From a virus (Duplodnaviria; Caudoviricetes), in IMG/VR virus record IMGVR_UViG_3300037067_018912, positions 64,001 through 128,000 of that record: a stretch of DNA of 64,000 nt, one strand, 5' to 3'. The notes under the pieces are model-generated. The model was not told where the DNA came from, made no database searches, and was given only the letters and a program-made list of their open reading frames with translations. The position numbers and the translations under genes were made by a program. Position 1 is the stretch's first letter. Every line of letters starts with the position of its first letter. Below are positions 35,226-43,102 of the stretch, in pieces.

Positions 35226-36608
35226 TTAAACTACTGCCAATGTCTTTGCAACTGCCGCCCTATAAAAATCAGCACGTTTTTTTGTCACATCAGCAAGATT
35301 ATATTGATCTTTGAAGTCCTCGTACAATTGCTCGCCGAGTTGTTTTCTCAAATCGGGATTGAGGATCAACCTTTTGAGATATTTCGTCCAATATTTATGT
35401 GCATTTTTCACTGCAGGAATTAACACACAGTTCTCCATGTGCCGCCCATGTACGTTATAAGGCGGAATATCTGAACATACGATCGGAAGTTTTCTCGACC
35501 AACATTCAACCTGTTTCAAATTTGATTTCATCCTGTTGAAAGAATTATCGGCCAACGGGGCAATCACGATATCGGTTTCATCGAGAACTTTCGCATAAGT
35601 ATTCGCTTTCTGCGTCCACCTGCGGGCAAAATTACCCTCCTCCGGGTATTCGACATTTCTTTCGAAATTATGAAGCCATTGAATGTAATCAGGATTGCTT
35701 ATCATCCTATGATTATCGGTTAATATCTTCTCGTATATGTAATATACGCTTTCCGTCGATTTGATGTCCCTCTGTTGGCTGTTGAATATCTTACCACGGT
35801 ACTTTTCCTTCAAATCAAGCGGCAGATCAGGTATCTTGTCCACATCGCCCCTCGATTTATTAATATCCTTAACCATTTTGTGCACCCATAACCCTCTTTT
35901 TTGCAATTCAGTACCGAATTCTTGGTTAAAGGTGATGTCGGTGGTATTGCCCTCAGTATCCCATCCGGCGATTACAACCTTAAATTTATTCTTTAAATTA
36001 GTGTCGTTTGAAAGAACGTTCATTACACCTTGAAGTTGTTCAACGTCCGCCATATGGGACGACCCGGCCATATATGTTATCCTGACACGACCGTCGGGAT
36101 CGGGTCTCCAATTATTTTGAAACTGTTTCATCCAAACAGGGTCAACGGAATTATAGAATACCCCAACATTGTCCCTTCCAGTTACCTTGCGGATTTCCTC
36201 GGCGAATAAATCGGTGGTTGTAGTAACATAATCCGCTATTTTAAGGTTCTCAAGGATTGGGATGTATAACTTCTTTTCGAGACTCATCGTGTAAAACGGA
36301 TGTTTTTGATGCAAATTCCAATAGTCGTCTATATCAACTATCAGTATTGTCCCCGATTTTTTCAATTCGTTTGCAAGATTCAACATCTGCTTTGAATCTC
36401 CAAGAAACTGACGGTGGTAGTGTATAATATGAAACGTTTTTAAATAATCCACAAAAGCGGGGTCGTTGAAATTGATTTGGGGGTTGATTTCAACGTAAAA
36501 TTCATCCGAATGATTCCTTTCAATCTCTATTGCCGGAGTCAGAGTCCTGAAATAGTTAACTCCCGCACCGTCAAGGTTATAGAACAAAATTCTTATCTTT
36601 CCATCCAT
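35226..36608 (-). CDS. GT-B fold glycosyltransferase (GT4-like)
   Basis: DIDDYW, ADYVTTTT, DIVIAPL..FNRMKSNLKQVE..PIVCSDIPPY. Confidence 0.85.
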   Translation of the reverse strand: MDGKIRILFYNLDGAGVNYFRTLTPAIEIERNHSDEFYVEINPQINFNDPAFVDYLKTFHIIHYHRQFLGDSKQMLNLANELKKSGTILIVDIDDYWNLHQKHPFYTMSLEKKLYIPILENLKIADYVTTTTDLFAEEIRKVTGRDNVGVFYNSVDPVWMKQFQNNWRPDPDGRVRITYMAGSSHMADVEQLQGVMNVLSNDTNLKNKFKVVIAGWDTEGNTTDITFNQEFGTELQKRGLWVHKMVKDINKSRGDVDKIPDLPLDLKEKYRGKIFNSQQRDIKSTESVYYIYEKILTDNHRMISNPDYIQWLHNFERNVEYPEEGNFARRWTQKANTYAKVLDETDIVIAPLADNSFNRMKSNLKQVECWSRKLPIVCSDIPPYNVHGRHMENCVLIPAVKNAHKYWTKYLKRLILNPDLRKQLGEQLYEDFKDQYNLADVTKKRADFYRAAVAKTLAVV

Positions 36609-37961: not shown

Positions 37962-40900
37962 TCAAATTAATTTTTGAATTTCCTCCTTAATGGTATTCAA
38001 AAGTTTGGATTCCGTCAACGCCAAATTACCCTTATCAGCAAAATAAATATTGAATCTCACATTTTCGGGAATCTGATTTTTGATAGCATTATACGCCTCT
38101 AATTCAACATCCCGGTCTTCATAGACATTGATTTCTTGGATATCTGGAAATTCTTTCAAATAATTCAAGACTTTCTGCCCCTTGTCGAGATCGTCGTCCC
38201 CATTTTTCATATCAAGCCTATCAACATGAACACCACCCCTTTTCAATATCTCTTCAACTTGAGGGCGCAACTTCTCGATCCTCGACGTTAGAATGAGGAC
38301 ATATGTACCCGGTGTCGACTTCTCCTTTTGATATTGGTTGTAGATACCGGGAAATGGTTTGATATCAAAAATATCCAAATCCAAACTTTCAGGTTTACTC
38401 CACCATCCGATATGAGGGTATTTCTCACCCGTTTTTTCAGTCCATTCTTGCTTCCCGACCTCTGGATGTGGTGAATTCATCAACGTACCATCGAAATCAA
38501 ATATTGCAAGCCTTTTCACCCCCCTTGGTGTGTTCTGTGGGGTTTCAATCAGTTGGTTCTCAACTTCCTCAATCTTCCCCGTTACTTTAAATCGAAATCC
38601 AAGTGGTTTCCAATCCGTCAATTCTTTGGACATGGCTGGTTTTCCACCCGCTTCTTTATTGATCGCCAATGTTATATGAGGTTTTGTACTTTCGCTCGGA
38701 TACCCGGTAACACCAACAGCCATCACCAAATCATTCAATGCATAATCGACAATATTGAGTGTGATTGTTTTACTCCCTTTCATATCCAAATATTCTTTCG
38801 AATTGGGATCAAGTTCATCGAGCCTTATTGTCATGTGATGTGCAACAACCTCCCATCCTTCGGGGATCATGGCCTTGAAAACTTTCAATAACTGTTTTCT
38901 CGATTCCTTGTCAAGTATCACCCCGGTGTATGAAACCCTTTTCATTGGAGGTCTCTCTTCAACACCTTCATTCAGGACCTCCCTATCAGTCAACATCCAA
39001 CGTAATTCGTTCTTTAATCTTTCATCATTTACCAAATCGGGGAACTCGTCTTCCAAAAATCTCAACACAGATTCTTTTGACGGATCGTGAAACCTACCCC
39101 CGGCGTTCCATTGGTCGTATTTGTCGATGAATTGATCAAGATTCAACGATTTCACCCCTTCTTGAATATCGGCGATGTCTCTCTTAACATCAACACCTTT
39201 GTTCTGCTGTGCGAATTTCATCAATTCCTGCTTGTCGTTTCTTAATTTATCGGCATATATTTTCAAAAGTATGCTTTTAAGCATATCGCCAATCTCGCTG
39301 CCTTTAAATCCCAATGTCATTAAATCATTTCCGTTCACAGTCAATTCGCCAAGAGTCTTCGGGTATTTTCCCTGCACCAACTCTCGTGCTGCATTCTCGA
39401 TATTTTCGGGCAATATCGTACTTTGAAAAGTCTGTGGGGACAAGACGTACACATTATGAGCAATCGCTCTCGCCTTGACAGGATTGGATTCCTGCGAACC
39501 ATTGTAGGCGGTGTCAAGTGCCTTAATCTCCTTGTATGTGTTGATGTCGCCTCTCAGATTATTTTTGTAATATCCTGCAGGGTTCGGATTGAGGTGGATT
39601 AATAGAAATATAAACTCACCCATCGTCTTCACATCCTCGAAAGGACTCCTATCAATTGTTGATTGTTTAATGTCAAACCCAAAAATATTTTGGAAGAGTC
39701 CTGTATTTTTCAATAATTGCGCACCCATACGCTTATTGCCTTTTTTGACAATCTTATCGAATTCAATAAGAACCCTTTCAGCCGGAATTTCTTTTATTCT
39801 ACCTGCATTGGTTTGGATCATTTTCATCGTTTCTGGCTCAATTGTGAACCCAAAACGTGCTGCAAATTGAACCGCACGAAGCATTCTCAACGGATCATCA
39901 CTGAACGCCTTGGGATTGACGATGCGGATTATCTTGTTTTTTAAATCCTCCCGTCCGCCATAAGGATCGACTATATTACCCTCACTGTCTTTTGCAATAG
40001 AGTTGATAGTGAAATCCCTTCGTTCCAAATCCTTTTCGATTGGCAAGGCATGATCCGAAGTCACGCTGAATCCATGATAGCCGCCTTCTCCCGTCGGTGT
40101 TTCAGTTCTTGGTATAGCGACATCGACCTCCTCGCCACCTCTCGGTTTGAATTTCAATATACCGAAAGATTTTCCAACGGCGTTAACCACACCGTACTTT
40201 GAAAGGATTTTTTCAAGTTCATCGAAGGGAATTCCCGTAACAAGAATATCCAAATCCTTACTTTCTTTGCCAAGGAATTCATCCCGGACAGCACCACCGA
40301 CAGAATATATCTTTCCACCCACCGCTTCAACGTCATTTTTGAACGGCAGGTCAGTCAATGACGTCGACACCGCCTCGTTCAACGATTTTGGCAATCTGTA
40401 CATTGATTCAGATGTTTGATAATCAGCGTGAGTTCCCTTGTTGGGAACAAATCCATACGATTTATACCATTTCTTCAATCTCTCTTTGCTTGCACCCCAA
40501 ACATTATCCGGTGTTAATGTTAATATTTTATTGTTTTTGTCGGCGAAATCAATCAAGAGTCTCATCGCTTTATCGGCGAATCCACGTCCCCTAAATTCCC
40601 TGTGGATGATGATTTTATTTAAAGTAAGGTATTGGTTCTTCCTATCGGTGAGTTCCATCTCACCCACAATTTCACCGTCGTTAATAATATTATGTACGTT
40701 CCATCCACCCCCGGTGCTACTTGCAGGCAAATTTACGGTTAGTTCCTCTTGTACCCCACCATTTTCATTCACGGCATACGCTAATTGAGGTAATTCAATC
40801 ACTCCATACCGTCTGTTGAGATATTTTAGAATAGATTCGTCCGTATAATCCAATAATTTCCCGATCTCATACCCTTCTTCCGGTGTCATGTCTGCCGTAT

Positions 40901-42485
40901 AACCCCCGTGAGTTTTCATAATGTCGTGCAGCCTGTTCGCCTGATTCTCATAGCCTTTCCTGTAAACAAGGACGGGTTCAAAACTTGCAGGATGATTCGT
41001 TTGCTGTATCGGTATAATACCAAATCCTGCTTCTTTAACTCTGTCACGGAGCATGCGCCCACCAGTCAATCCGAAATTAATGAAACCAACATTTTTGTCA
41101 CCCGCAATCATCGAGTCAACGGTTTTTTCGTCCGAAAAACCCTCACTTGCATCAACCTCTTCTTTCAACGATCCATTTTCTTCCGCACCAATTTTTTCCG
41201 CCTTTATTATTTCAATAATATTGGGGTTATATATTATATAATGTTTTCTGTTATTGGGTTTTTCTATTATTTGACCGTCATAACCCAATCCTACCATTGC
41301 CCGTACAAATTCCTTGGGGTAATACCTAAAAAAATCATACCATACTTGTTGAAACAAATCTTTTTCATTCTTGGAATATTTAAAAAACGAATCGATGGCC
41401 GCATATAATCCCTTTTCAGGATTTTCTGACCAATTAGTCGCACTGTCCTCCCAAGTCGGAGACATTTTGATCAAATTCACCAATTCTTTTGGAGAAACTT
41501 TTCTGTGGGACGATTCGTCAAGTAACTTTCTTGGTGACAATCTTACTGTATGCATATAACCGCCATGACCGCCATACATCCATGCATCATCATAGTCGTT
41601 TGTAAAATAAATGCCAGGTCCTTCTTGATCCGTGGCTTTTTCAGCACCCACAAACTCATCGGTGAAACTATCAATTTTATTTGGAGAACCATGAAAGGCC
41701 AAAATACCACCTTCTTCAAAAGTTGTAATCGATTCGCCAATTGGTTTGATATCAAGATTGCTTATGTCGCCCTGGTTGCAAGCGGCACTTGTATTCCCCA
41801 TACCTCCGAGTCTGCATTTCTTCTTGACGCTGACGGCACTGCTGCCGGGCATATAGGATTGTAATCTCTCGTTTAAATTCTCACGGGTTAATTCTTCAAG
41901 CACCTGCCGGATTGTCTTAATATGAAAATCACGGTCTTCTTCTTTCAAGAACCCAATAACAGTAAACATTTGTTGCAACGCATCCACTGGGTTTATAAGA
42001 ACAAATTCCTTATATTTGAAACCTTCCTTACGAATGTAATTGATTATGTCTTTCAACGCCTTAATGAAACCCGCTTTGTCGCCGTTATTAAATGCGTTTT
42101 CCATTGCAGGGAAATAATCGTTCAACACTTCGCCTGCAATCCTTTTTGCGAGATCGATTTGTTCGTTAACATCACCCTCCCTCGGAACAGCATGTTTTAT
42201 TATCCTGGTAAGATAATAATCAATCCCTTCCGCCTCGGTCATAATGAACCTGTCTTTGGTAGCATCACCAACATGGTTATATTCCAAATCCTCGCTCAAA
42301 TTCTCTTGCGGTGGAAATTCATCTTGTCCAACAGCAGAATCGGTTGAGAATTTCGAAGACCCGTCTTCATCAACTGTATTGGGGGTCACGGCGGTCATTC
42401 CGTTTCTTATATCAGCACCACCGCCGATATCCGAAAGAATATCGTCATTGCCGTCGGCGTTGAATAATTCATGTAATTCATCCAT
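37962..42485 (-). CDS. cca: polyvalent multidomain protein: ADP-ribosyltransferase, GNAT, CCA-adding nucleotidyltransferase, 2H phosphodiesterase, HAD phosphatase
   Basis: AFHGS..GPGIYFT..GYDG (ART); FRGRGFA..WYKSYGF (GNAT); VGGAVRD..DLD..RRDFTIN..DDPLRMLR (class II CCA NTase); HMTI/HITL (2H); FDFDGTL..YEDR (HAD). Confidence 0.88.
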   Translation of the reverse strand: MDELHELFNADGNDDILSDIGGGADIRNGMTAVTPNTVDEDGSSKFSTDSAVGQDEFPPQENLSEDLEYNHVGDATKDRFIMTEAEGIDYYLTRIIKHAVPREGDVNEQIDLAKRIAGEVLNDYFPAMENAFNNGDKAGFIKALKDIINYIRKEGFKYKEFVLINPVDALQQMFTVIGFLKEEDRDFHIKTIRQVLEELTRENLNERLQSYMPGSSAVSVKKKCRLGGMGNTSAACNQGDISNLDIKPIGESITTFEEGGILAFHGSPNKIDSFTDEFVGAEKATDQEGPGIYFTNDYDDAWMYGGHGGYMHTVRLSPRKLLDESSHRKVSPKELVNLIKMSPTWEDSATNWSENPEKGLYAAIDSFFKYSKNEKDLFQQVWYDFFRYYPKEFVRAMVGLGYDGQIIEKPNNRKHYIIYNPNIIEIIKAEKIGAEENGSLKEEVDASEGFSDEKTVDSMIAGDKNVGFINFGLTGGRMLRDRVKEAGFGIIPIQQTNHPASFEPVLVYRKGYENQANRLHDIMKTHGGYTADMTPEEGYEIGKLLDYTDESILKYLNRRYGVIELPQLAYAVNENGGVQEELTVNLPASSTGGGWNVHNIINDGEIVGEMELTDRKNQYLTLNKIIIHREFRGRGFADKAMRLLIDFADKNNKILTLTPDNVWGASKERLKKWYKSYGFVPNKGTHADYQTSESMYRLPKSLNEAVSTSLTDLPFKNDVEAVGGKIYSVGGAVRDEFLGKESKDLDILVTGIPFDELEKILSKYGVVNAVGKSFGILKFKPRGGEEVDVAIPRTETPTGEGGYHGFSVTSDHALPIEKDLERRDFTINSIAKDSEGNIVDPYGGREDLKNKIIRIVNPKAFSDDPLRMLRAVQFAARFGFTIEPETMKMIQTNAGRIKEIPAERVLIEFDKIVKKGNKRMGAQLLKNTGLFQNIFGFDIKQSTIDRSPFEDVKTMGEFIFLLIHLNPNPAGYYKNNLRGDINTYKEIKALDTAYNGSQESNPVKARAIAHNVYVLSPQTFQSTILPENIENAARELVQGKYPKTLGELTVNGNDLMTLGFKGSEIGDMLKSILLKIYADKLRNDKQELMKFAQQNKGVDVKRDIADIQEGVKSLNLDQFIDKYDQWNAGGRFHDPSKESVLRFLEDEFPDLVNDERLKNELRWMLTDREVLNEGVEERPPMKRVSYTGVILDKESRKQLLKVFKAMIPEGWEVVAHHMTIRLDELDPNSKEYLDMKGSKTITLNIVDYALNDLVMAVGVTGYPSESTKPHITLAINKEAGGKPAMSKELTDWKPLGFRFKVTGKIEEVENQLIETPQNTPRGVKRLAIFDFDGTLMNSPHPEVGKQEWTEKTGEKYPHIGWWSKPESLDLDIFDIKPFPGIYNQYQKEKSTPGTYVLILTSRIEKLRPQVEEILKRGGVHVDRLDMKNGDDDLDKGQKVLNYLKEFPDIQEINVYEDRDVELEAYNAIKNQIPENVRFNIYFADKGNLALTESKLLNTIKEEIQKLI

Positions 42486-42487
42486 TG

Positions 42488-43102
42488 TTACTTCTTATTG
42501 TAATGTTTATCATATATGTCATTGGTCAACCCATAATCAACCAAAACAGCCGTAGGCTTACCATTCCGGAGAATCTCACCATAAGTATTTATACAACTCA
42601 AATCCCCAAAATGAATATCATATTTAAAAACAAATTCTTCAAATTTTATGATGAAATTATCCCCATTCATATTATTTTCGATATTGACGGGCAATAAATG
42701 TCTCTTCTCGTTTCCCCTTCGTACTTCACCACAATTCACCAAATAAAAATAAACATCTTTCAACTTAAACCCTGTCAACTCCTTGAATTTTTTCAAGGTA
42801 ACCCTTCCGGCTTTTTCTGCAACCACCCAATCCTTGCAATCATTACTGTCAAGAACGTTGGCAAGAAATTCAAACCTCCTGTCCGTCCACCGGGGCAGGA
42901 AAGACGCCTCCACCGCATTTTGCATGAGACCTTCTTGGTTCACTGCCAATTTAAAAATTTTGGCGTCGTCGAATTCATACACGAATCTACCTGATCCACG
43001 GGCGATCTTCTTTAAACGTTTGTTACAATATTCAATCCTTTTTACAAAAGTATCGATTCCATTCAAACCTTCCAAAAAATTTGAAAATTCAATTTGTGTC
43101 AT
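42488..43102 (-). CDS. protein kinase-like protein
   Basis: IARGSGRFVY, IFKLA, N..E, GDL..NTYG, LVDYG. Confidence 0.7.
   Translation of the reverse strand: MTQIEFSNFLEGLNGIDTFVKRIEYCNKRLKKIARGSGRFVYEFDDAKIFKLAVNQEGLMQNAVEASFLPRWTDRRFEFLANVLDSNDCKDWVVAEKAGRVTLKKFKELTGFKLKDVYFYLVNCGEVRRGNEKRHLLPVNIENNMNGDNFIIKFEEFVFKYDIHFGDLSCINTYGEILRNGKPTAVLVDYGLTNDIYDKHYNKK

Follow-up and report, generated by a model that had tools for sequence, protein, structure and literature searches.

A predicted tRNA 3'-end healing and rebuilding module within a polyvalent protein of a giant phage

The polyvalent gene and its surroundings

The gene described in this study lies in a stretch of 64,000 nucleotides (the window) from a 357-kb giant-phage virus record. 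It is an uninterrupted open reading frame at 37962..42485 on the minus strand, as are all features given below, with its stop codon at 37962-37964, and it encodes a protein of 1507 aa (P0001). With ART-PolyVal, GNAT, NTase, 2H and HAD domains in this one ORF, P0001 is a multi-domain polyvalent protein. The gene is tightly packed between its neighbors: the stop of the upstream gene lies 2 nt 5' of its ATG, and the downstream gene abuts its own stop. The upstream gene (42488..43102, 204 aa, phrog_4301 match) translationally abuts the polyvalent gene, and at a syntenic locus (L009) its product is joined to the polyvalent N-terminus (product w204-Nterm-GNAT), the 628-aa fused product of the syntenic relative having precomputed ART-PolyVal and GNAT matches. 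This fusion suggests that the upstream gene is part of the same effector set. The locus is conserved, with polB/NUDIX genes on one side and gp25/baseplate-wedge genes on the other, and directly upstream in it are NUDIX and WYL-like genes.

A sequence-only reading of the region had described 37965-40370 as a complete tRNA 3'-end repair line in one chain, made up of a 2H phosphodiesterase, a HAD phosphatase and a CCA-adding enzyme. The three domains were found at the positions claimed, with sub-coordinates right to about 30 nt and with intact catalytic motifs, and they do lie in a single ORF. However, the stretch corresponds to residues ~706-1507, the C-terminal half of a 1507-aa protein that also carries ART-PolyVal, GNAT, a conserved domain "X" and N-terminal modules, and the mature product need not be one chain, as the protein has conserved L-x-E junctions and the genome encodes a prohead protease (S77), which allow for processing.

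The N-terminal region (residues 1-245, 41751..42485), delimited by phmmer mapping, contains three short modules (about residues 3-43, 37-90 and 200-245), which are shared with other polyvalent proteins and may have a role in packaging or as junctions. It is followed by an ART-PolyVal ADP-ribosyltransferase domain (residues 246-432, 41190..41750), which matched PF18760 with 31.5 bits against a cut-off of 31.2 and phrog_25279 with 3.9e-32. Residues H265, Y293 and D403 are invariant in the alignment and fit the H-Y-D type of ART described in PMC5512222. Domain X (residues 440-592, 40710..41168) was defined from the alignment and the architectures of relatives, has the motifs E..DASE and GGY..D.TPEEA.EIGKLLDYTDESI, and often adjoins the NTase in relatives (architectures P0012, P0144, P0060 and P0068); it gave no lead in the ESM Atlas and no match in a PDB profile search. 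The GNAT acetyltransferase (residues 597-708, 40362..40697) matched the Pfam models Acetyltransf_7 (30 bits, cut-off 27) and Acetyltransf_1 (26.6 bits, cut-off 20.7) and has the acetyl-CoA motif RGRGFA at 40575-40592. The domain content varies among close relatives, in that a 1449-aa protein (P0002) that is 91% identical to P0001 over the C-terminal 408 residues compared is without the ART domain.

Domains of the C-terminal half and their recurrence

Judged by E-values and conservation, all three of the predicted repair domains are far beyond chance. The first is a class II CCA-type tRNA nucleotidyltransferase (NTase) with head, neck, body and tail (residues 719-1096, 39198..40331), recognized by Pfam, NCBIfam and motifs A-E. 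It matched PolyA_pol with an E-value of 5.7e-22 (78.8 bits, cut-off 23) and PolyA_pol_RNAbd with 8.6e-15. Motif A is present as GGAVRD at residues 730-735 and D744-L-D746 (DLD), and motifs B-E are present as RRDFTIN (822-828), DPYGGREDL (840-848), DDPLRMLRAVQF (863-874) and ERVLIEFDK (903-911). Of the NCBIfam models, PRK13299 (CCA tRNA nucleotidyltransferase) gave 178.7 bits against an equivalog cut-off of 290, in a match that covers model positions 16-394 of 396 and hence includes the body and tail, which bind tRNA. PRK10885, the E. coli-type model, gave 165.9 bits over model positions 2-207 of 409 only, and the PcnB models gave 112.8 bits (TIGR01942) and 88 bits (PRK11623). The CCA models thus beat the PcnB models by 54-91 bits, with P0001 scoring under every NCBIfam equivalog cut-off. 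The tRNA_NucTran2_2 tail model scored 23.3 against a cut-off of 27 in P0001 and is passed by a relative (P0014). Among solved structures, 1miv, a CCA-adding enzyme from Bacillus, is closest. No deletion is seen in the loop that connects motif A to motif B, and a motif D-type (E/DDxxR) segment is present, in agreement with the loop and template motif that had been pointed out from the sequence. The earlier statement that there is no HD domain was also borne out, as Pfam found no HD match in P0001 and the PRK10885 match ends at 207 of 409; the enzyme is not a member of the E. coli-type NTase + HD class.

Between the NTase and the 2H domain lies a helical linker domain of about 65-80 aa (residues 1101-1180, 38946..39185) that is conserved in relatives. 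It precedes 2H in relatives of the order NTase-link-2H and ends in a conserved [LF]-x-E (LNE at 1171-1173). Its helices were predicted only by a single-sequence AF2 model of residues 1100-1507, which at a pLDDT of 38 is unusable.

The second domain is a minimal 2H phosphoesterase, predicted to be a 2',3'-cyclic phosphodiesterase (residues 1181-1312, 38550..38945), and was assigned by motifs and fold. Its two motifs, HMT at 38829-38837 (H1217-M-T1219) and HIT at 38670-38678 (H1270-I-T1272), are both 97-98% conserved across 58 relatives. For the 2H and HAD domains the single-sequence model was replaced by an alignment-based AF2 model with a pLDDT of 94.3. The 2H part of this model matched mouse CNPase 2xmi with a Z of 12.8 and an rmsd of 2.2 over 126 residues, and Foldseek also gave CNPase. 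Two H-x-T/S motifs on a duplicated alpha+beta fold are the features of the 2H superfamily. P0001 had no match to the Pfam 2H models. Among relatives, P0011 (27.4) and P0035 (25.6) pass the cut-off of 23 for tRNA_lig_CPD (PF08302), with P0033, P0119 and P0006 below it, and P0035 has a second 2H domain with a sub-threshold Acb1 match of 23.6 bits.

The third domain is a HAD phosphatase of the Pnkp or "Swiss-army-knife" type (residues 1322-1507, 37965..38522), likewise assigned by motifs and fold. DFDGT at 38484-38498 (D1330-F-D1332-G-T1334) supplies the DxDxT motif, which is conserved together with T1400, R1402, K1435 and D1457 in 83 relatives. Motifs I (DxDxT), II (S/T), III (K) and IV (acidic) are thereby found on a Rossmannoid fold, as in the HAD superfamily. 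Pnkp1 (4xrp, Z 13.8) and the T4 Pnkp phosphatase (5uj0, Z 13.6) were at the top of a structure search independent of Foldseek. These values, along with that for CNPase, uphold the earlier view that the 2H and HAD domains are akin to RNA end-healing enzymes. P0001 scored 22.2 bits with HAD_SAK_1 (PF10307, cut-off 25.6), which relatives P0003 (29.1) and P0022 (47.9) pass, and matched phrog_415 (polynucleotide kinase) at 1.5e-07. The family has an insert of about 55 residues of its own with an invariant GWW...ESLD motif. Against PDB sequences, phmmer with residues 1100-1507 gave no match, the 2H-family profile gave chance-level matches only, and so did the HAD-family profile, the best being Pnkp1 at E 0.09. 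The assignment of substrates to the 2H and HAD domains therefore comes from fold and context. It should be noted that HADs of the T4 Pnkp type act on DNA 3'-phosphates too.

The three domains recur together in other phages. The 2H/HAD search gave 1568 representative matches and the NTase search more than 4500 relatives, nearly all of them from uncultured phages in both cases. Among the best 150 of the 1568 representatives, 58 proteins had a 2H domain of the P0001 type, and 34 of these 58 also had an NTase, 20 a HAD and 9 all three. The domain orders seen were NTase-link-2H, 2H-NTase-HAD, NTase-HAD, 2H-HAD and HAD-2H. When the 120 nearest of the more than 4500 NTases were considered, 17 had precomputed HAD_SAK_1 matches and 4 had tRNA_lig_CPD matches. 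At syntenic loci the domains are found in neighboring genes, as a protein ending in X-NTase, a 218-aa protein and a 2H-HAD protein in L005, and as an NTase-2H-2H' protein and a separate HAD in L009. These permuted fusions and split neighboring genes support a functional link between the domains. Megablast of the P0001 gene against GenBank phages gave no match, and tblastn of residues 711-1507 against the same phages gave 491 records, all for the NTase part only and none with at least 80% query coverage. This suggests that the three-domain form is not present in deposited, named phages at detectable similarity. Many of the fusion relatives are annotated merely as "tRNA nucleotidyltransferase/poly(A) polymerase", an ambiguous name because the head-domain motifs are all common to class II CCA enzymes and the poly(A) polymerases of bacteria.

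Proposed function and competing explanations

The 357-kb genome has 60 tRNA genes and a tmRNA. CCA is encoded in just 4 of the 60 tRNA genes and is lacking in the other 56, as had been predicted, and P0001 is the only gene of the PolyA_pol family in the genome. C74 is kept in 57 of the 60, and in 39 of the 60 C74-A75 is followed by an A-rich trailer. The 56 genes without CCA and the single NTase gene favour a CCA-adding activity for the predicted NTase, which, given those 56 genes, would have to complete the phage's tRNAs.

Taken together, the data make it probable, though well short of certain, that residues ~711-1507 of P0001 form a ligase-independent module for the healing and rebuilding of tRNA 3' ends. 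In the proposed mechanism, the substrate would be a tRNA cut in its acceptor end by a metal-independent RNase, and the 2H domain would open the 2',3'-cyclic phosphate left there. Enzymes of the CNPase and Trl1-CPD type yield a 2'-phosphate and a 3'-OH. The Pnkp-like HAD would strip the phosphomonoester left at the 2' or 3' position, or a different terminal phosphate that blocks the end, and the class II NTase would then add back the C, C and A that had been lost. The NTase would also finish the phage's own tRNAs. We infer the module's substrates, the order of its steps, its packaging and processing, and its benefit in counter-defence as opposed to maturation.

The module had been called ligase-independent from the sequence. 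The genome does encode an RtcB ligase elsewhere, the sole RNA ligase found, but RtcB requires 3'-P or >P ends, which are the ends that 2H and HAD remove, and the module itself therefore still looks ligase-independent. Pfam searches of the 357-kb genome gave no match to Rnl2-type ligases (PF09414), AAA_33 kinases or the TROVE domain; the Rnl1 model PF09511 gave zero genome matches, as it did with the controls, and is uninformative. Since RtcB cannot use the healed ends and neither an Rnl2-type ligase nor an AAA_33 kinase was found, the NTase is the only evident consumer of those ends.

The repair line had also been proposed as a counter-defence, which overstated its purpose, as the tRNA genes without CCA give a housekeeping reason as well. 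The product is probably late and packaged, because it is joined to ART-PolyVal and GNAT and its gene lies between replication and baseplate genes. It would be made late, packaged, and enter the host along with the phage DNA, and the T4-like prohead protease may split it into individual enzymes. The conserved L-x-E junctions may be the sites of such cutting, the candidates being IGE (249-251), LKE (440-442), LNE (702-704) and LNE (1171-1173). P0001 contains 40 [LIVM]-x-E motifs compared to a shuffled expectation of 30.4 ± 4.7, which is only mildly above it, so the count does not in itself argue for processing and it is the conserved junctions that are suggestive. A more tentative proposal, which we regard as possible but doubtful, is that a virion-delivered polyprotein cut at [LIVMF]-x-E by the prohead protease carries out ligase-independent acceptor-end repair from the first minute of infection as a counter-defence. 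Its targets would be host effectors that trim the CCA end or block it with phosphate, for example acceptor-end RNases or CapRel-type 3'-pyrophosphorylation, and it would be distinct from the repair of anticodon loops by Pnkp/Rnl or RtcB. We know of no host defence nuclease that trims acceptor ends and leaves >P, a point that also weighs against the preferred explanation of end healing. More speculatively, phage tRNA precursors might be deliberately cut after C74 to leave a cyclic phosphate, such that only the phage's line activates them.

Plain tRNA maturation is a serious rival, because only 4 of 60 tRNA genes encode CCA and P0001 is the sole CCA-family enzyme, although on balance we think it unlikely. 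Under this explanation the module matures the phage's ~60 tRNAs and tmRNA, with 2H and HAD tidying the RNase-cut ends of the array; a variant is that cutting after the conserved C74 could leave a cyclic phosphate. The retention of C74 and the C74-A75 ends with A-rich trailers fit this explanation, as do the occurrence of NTase relatives on giant-phage-sized contigs of up to 348 kb and of tRNA genes 1.5-2 kb away on the contig of P0011 (2H-NTase-HAD). However, bacterial hosts nearly always have a CCA-adding enzyme of their own, and cleavage at C74 is not known for any RNase. The known bacterial enzymes of 3' maturation, RNase Z and exonucleases, generate a 3'-OH, for which neither 2H nor HAD would be required. 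Additionally, the fusion to ART and GNAT and the virion-gene neighbors suit an early-acting conflict protein better (PMC5512222).

It is improbable that the 2H and HAD domains destroy immune signals or toxic nucleotides in place of healing RNA ends and are merely co-delivered with an independent CCA enzyme. Candidate substrates would be 2',3'-cyclic or 2'-5'-linked oligonucleotides, cyclic nucleotides and ADP-ribose phosphates. Such a role was proposed for polyvalent 2H domains, which were never associated with RNA ligases (Iyer et al. 2017, PMC5512222), and it agrees with the NUDIX and WYL-like genes just upstream in the conserved locus and with the sub-threshold match of the second 2H domain of P0035 to anti-CBASS Acb1, which has a Pfam model of its own. 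However, the fusion of P0001-type 2H domains to a CCA-type NTase in 34 of 58 proteins and to a HAD in 20 of 58 would be difficult to account for if the domains did not share a substrate, relatives come closest to the tRNA ligase CPD among Pfam families, the nearest 2H structure is CNPase, and the nearest HAD structures are polynucleotide 3'-phosphatases.

Finally, it is very improbable that the NTase does something other than CCA addition, such as adding poly(A) or other tails, only A or only CC, and serves to mark host RNAs for decay or to alter RNA ends: the shared head-domain motifs and the scores under every equivalog cut-off would allow it, but the lead of the CCA models over PcnB, the PRK13299 match through body and tail, the tail model passed by P0014, the undeleted A-B loop and the 56 tRNAs that need CCA in a genome with no other candidate enzyme all argue against it.

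If the preferred explanation of end healing and rebuilding is right, giant phages have a second route of tRNA repair, at the acceptor end, beside the repair of anticodon loops, and the 56 tRNA genes without CCA are linked to a phage-encoded enzyme that would complete their products. The module would give a concrete reading for polyvalent 2H domains, whose role was previously left open, and points to host effectors attacking tRNA 3' ends, which could be searched for.

Comparison with known systems

P0001 resembles the polyvalent proteins of Iyer et al. 2017 (PMC5512222) in being a large chain of disparate enzymes, 2H included, with a gene adjoining virion genes and with a domain content that varies among close relatives, as in P0002. 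One family in that study has ART-PolyVal (H-Y-D) and GNAT in the same chain. The polyvalent 2H domains were considered there more likely to be RNases or degraders of nucleotide signals, a CCA-type NTase was unmentioned, and the Pol-beta NTases were minimal NTox45-like domains, whereas the P0001-type 2H shows a systematic association with a CCA-type NTase and with a HAD. In jumbo phages, the available part of a later survey (Iyer et al. 2021, PMC7824862) lists 2H domains, stand-alone "Swiss-army-knife" HADs, CCA-adding enzymes, RtcB and large tRNA sets, and regards all of these as countermeasures against attacks on translation and as separate components feeding RNA ligases. Neither a CCA enzyme fused or adjacent to 2H and HAD nor the placing of these domains in a polyvalent protein, as found here, is described in that part of the survey.

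Like the Trl1 CPD (PF08302) and vertebrate CNPase, P0001 has a 2H fold with two HxT motifs, and CNPase is its best structural match. Its 2H domain is, however, minimal (~130 residues), is without a ligase or kinase, and has a family-specific helical linker in front. The HAD shares the DxDxT acyl-phosphatase motifs, a close structural match and a predicted role in phage RNA end healing with T4 Pnkp and the Pnkp1-Rnl-Hen1 system. In contrast to these, P0001 is without a 5'-kinase, a partner ATP-dependent ligase and the Hen1 methyltransferase, the sequence similarity of its HAD family is not significant (E 0.09), it has the GWW...ESLD insert, and the end that it heals is presumably extended and not ligated.

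The closest parallel in logic is E. coli Cca, named "multifunctional CCA addition/repair protein" in NCBIfam (NF008137), the HD domain of which is reportedly a 2',3'-cyclic phosphodiesterase, a 2'-nucleotidase and a phosphatase (Yakunin et al. 2004, J Biol Chem 279:36819, cited in PMC2190708). As is predicted for P0001, CCA addition, cyclic phosphodiesterase and phosphatase share one polypeptide there, which suggests the same ligase-free logic of end healing and rebuilding. On this comparison the concept is not new in kind, as E. coli Cca already couples its two parts. The head and neck of the two enzymes are homologous (165.9 bits), but P0001 has unrelated 2H and HAD domains instead of HD, is embedded in a phage polyvalent protein, and has an NTase body and tail like those of the Bacillus-type enzyme (PRK13299, 1miv). 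If it acts as proposed, the module would have arisen from cellular Cca by replacement of HD with 2H and HAD.

Architecture of the polyvalent protein

A single 1507-codon ORF (window 37962..42485, minus strand) holds the putative tRNA-repair stretch. Profile searches with the whole protein, P0001, gave an N-terminal region (first ~245 residues; window 41751-42485), an ART-PolyVal ADP-ribosyltransferase (residues 246-432; 31.5 bits against a cut-off of 31.2, phrog_25279 3.9e-32), a conserved domain X without an assigned family (residues 440-592; window 40710-41168), a GNAT acetyltransferase (residues 597-708) and a class II tRNA nucleotidyltransferase (NTase; residues 719-1096). A helical linker (residues 1101-1180) leads from the NTase to a 2H domain (residues 1181-1312) and a HAD domain (residues 1322-1507), both recognized from family conservation and a fold model. 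The sequence-only reading had described a repair line in one chain at window 37965-40370; it located the NTase, 2H and HAD domains to within ~30 nt and the three do share an ORF, but the interval covers only residues ~706-1507 of the 1507. The polyvalent set also reaches past this ORF: a 204-aa upstream gene (window 42488-43102, minus strand) is separate here, whereas in a syntenic relative (L009 5230-7125) it forms part of the polyvalent protein, a 628-aa product with an ART-PolyVal match.

Domain X gave no lead in Pfam, PDB or Atlas. It carries the invariant motifs E..DASE and GGY..D.TPEE..IGKLLDYTDESI, and in relatives it recurrently adjoins a CCA-type NTase (2H-X-NTase-HAD, X-NTase-HAD). 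The N-terminal region comprises three short modules that recur internally in many other polyvalent proteins; the module at residues ~200-245, with a C-x11-C pair and the ending NLDIKP-[IM]-x-E, always lies directly before a new domain and looks like a junction or cleavage cassette.

It is plausible that P0001 is cut into separate enzymes, because the virus has a gene for a prohead protease of the T4 gp21 type (Peptidase_S77, 67.7 bits; G000:C1:227320-227787 in the numbering of the whole record) and junction motifs are conserved. An [LIVM]-x-E directly before domain X is invariant in 11 relatives, an [LF]-x-E at the linker/2H junction is invariant in 13, and the other junctions have similar motifs. 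However, the total of 40 [LIVM]-x-E motifs in P0001, against 30.4 ± 4.7 in shuffled sequence, is only ~2 SD above expectation. The protease would matter if head cargo proteins are processed at L-x-E sites.

The nucleotidyltransferase and the two phosphoesterases

All five class II motifs were found in the NTase, and the best curated model was the Bacillus-type CCA enzyme PRK13299 (positions 16-394 of 396, 178.7 bits), compared to 112.8 and 88 bits for PcnB models. Alignment to the nearest solved relative, the Geobacillus CCA-adding enzyme 1miv, had no deletion in the loop between motifs A and B and included a second, weak match in the NTase tail. Profile searches of P0001 found no HD domain, so the intact loop and missing HD domain noted in the sequence-only reading both hold. 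The NTase scores under every equivalog cut-off and is a divergent class member, whose sequence does not settle whether its product is CCA, A or poly(A).

Neither the 2H nor the HAD domain matched a solved structure by sequence search. An exhaustive search with residues 1100-1507 yielded 1568 representatives, and alignment of 132 of these produced a structure model with a pLDDT of 94.3. Fold searching of this predicted model with a method not dependent on Foldseek paired the 2H domain with the catalytic domain of CNPase at Z 12.8 (126 residues, rmsd 2.2), in agreement with Foldseek. For the predicted HAD fold, the top matches were Pnkp1 (Z 13.8), a component of the Pnkp1/Rnl/Hen1 RNA-repair complex, and the T4 Pnkp 3'-phosphatase (Z 13.6 and 13.1); they lead generic HADs by only one to two Z units. 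Catalytic residues are kept across the family in both 2H (H1217/T1219 and H1270/T1272) and HAD (D1330, D1332, T1334, T1400, R1402, K1435, D1457). The Pfam models for the tRNA-ligase CPD domain and HAD_SAK_1 score above cut-off in some relatives, though not in P0001.

Coupling of the three families

When the P0001 domains were mapped onto the best 150 of the 1568 representatives, 58 proteins had this 2H, with this NTase in 34 of them, the HAD in 20 and all three in 9 (P0001 not counted). Domain orders are permuted (NTase-link-2H, 2H-NTase-HAD, NTase-HAD, 2H-HAD, HAD-2H; link being the helical linker); NTase-link-2H is stand-alone or C-terminal in polyvalent proteins of 1300-2300 residues, and 2H-NTase-HAD proteins are ~700-800 residues long. 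Among the nearest 120 NTases, HAD_SAK_1 occurs in 17 and tRNA_lig_CPD in 4. The parts are also neighbouring genes at the same syntenic locus in relatives (polB, NUDIX, a WYL-like gene, a 224-aa gene, polyvalent gene(s), genes of ~280, ~116 and ~460 aa, gp25, baseplate wedge), laid out as [..X-NTase][218 aa][2H-HAD] in L005, [Nterm-X-GNAT][278 aa][NTase-link-2H] in L006 and [204-aa homologue-Nterm-GNAT][276 aa][NTase-2H-second 2H][HAD] in L009. That the same three families have been joined, split and reordered again and again argues strongly, on comparative grounds, for a substrate shared by NTase, 2H and HAD.

The L009 protein P0035 (8001-10157) carries its second, LigT/Acb1-like 2H at residues 589-701 (2_5_RNA_ligase2 32.1 bits; Acb1 23.6 bits, sub-threshold), with HAD as the next gene. 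The window's 460-aa glycosyltransferase-like gene (35226-36608) has a homologue at L009 13398-15920 that is split by an intein with a LAGLIDADG endonuclease.

Proposed substrates and function

The virus record around the window (357,275 bp) has direct terminal repeats and is rated complete, and ARAGORN found 60 tRNA genes and a tmRNA in it. The question of whether this phage's tRNA genes lack CCA can be answered largely in the affirmative, only 4 of the 60 encoding it. Position 74 is C in 57 of 60 genes and C74-A75 is present in 39, mostly followed by an A-rich trailer. The 3' flanks (G000:C1:159493-282981, outside the window; arrays at ~249-283 kb) read N73-C-A in 39 genes and N73-C-A-A plus an A-rich trailer in 34; this non-random flank could be a processing signal. 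The calls at G000:C1:159671-159745, 282907-282981 and 253714-253788 include the anticodons TCA (reads UGA) and CTA (reads UAG) and one four-base anticodon loop (gcgc); suppressor tRNAs are one possible identity for them, tRNA-like RNAs another. Window genes stay open under the standard code despite the TCA and CTA calls. The tmRNA (G000:C1:257755-258118) lies within the tRNA arrays and has the tag peptide AEDIMSIPTSLTRGRSVFVESAELIAA.

The polyvalent gene holds the sole PolyA_pol-family domain in the genome and the single copy of this 2H-HAD pair. Repair had been proposed to be ligase-independent. The phage is not ligase-free, because an RtcB RNA ligase is encoded at G000:C1:348880-349941 (a 409-aa frame; 153 and 49 bits for two pieces of it), 245 kb from the CCA/2H/HAD module. 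However, by established chemistry the ends that RtcB seals carry 3'-P or >P, and 2H and HAD would destroy such ends. Genome searches turned up neither an Rnl2-type ligase nor an AAA_33 kinase; with RtcB needing 3'-P or >P, this leaves no evident user of 2',3'-OH healed ends there other than the NTase.

The most likely reading, which we favour with moderate confidence, is an end-healing and rebuilding line. The 2H domain would open a terminal 2',3'-cyclic phosphate, HAD would take off the leftover monoester and the NTase would put back C, C and A. Two candidate purposes are compatible with each other. The line may finish the tRNAs that the phage itself encodes without CCA, a step needed in any case, and it may mend ends that host effectors have damaged or blocked, as the sequence-only reading held; the latter suits the polyvalent, conflict-type setting of PMC5512222 and PMC7824862. 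The main non-RNA alternative, degradation of nucleotide signals by 2H and HAD, was suggested earlier for polyvalent 2H domains (PMC5512222) and is weakened because this 2H family is systematically coupled to a CCA-type enzyme.

The component enzymes are already known, as is the concept of a CCA enzyme with an additional end-healing role. In the portion of the literature searched, no description was found of HD replaced by 2H and HAD, of the breadth of this phage family or of the placement inside polyvalent proteins; relatives looked up were all metagenomic, with automatic names only. For the HD domain of E. coli Cca, three activities are reported (Yakunin et al. 2004, as cited by PMC2190708): cyclic phosphodiesterase, 2'-nucleotidase and phosphatase. 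The phage protein would follow the same logic of CCA addition plus end healing, but where Cca uses its HD domain, the phage protein has two non-homologous domains, 2H and HAD, in its place.
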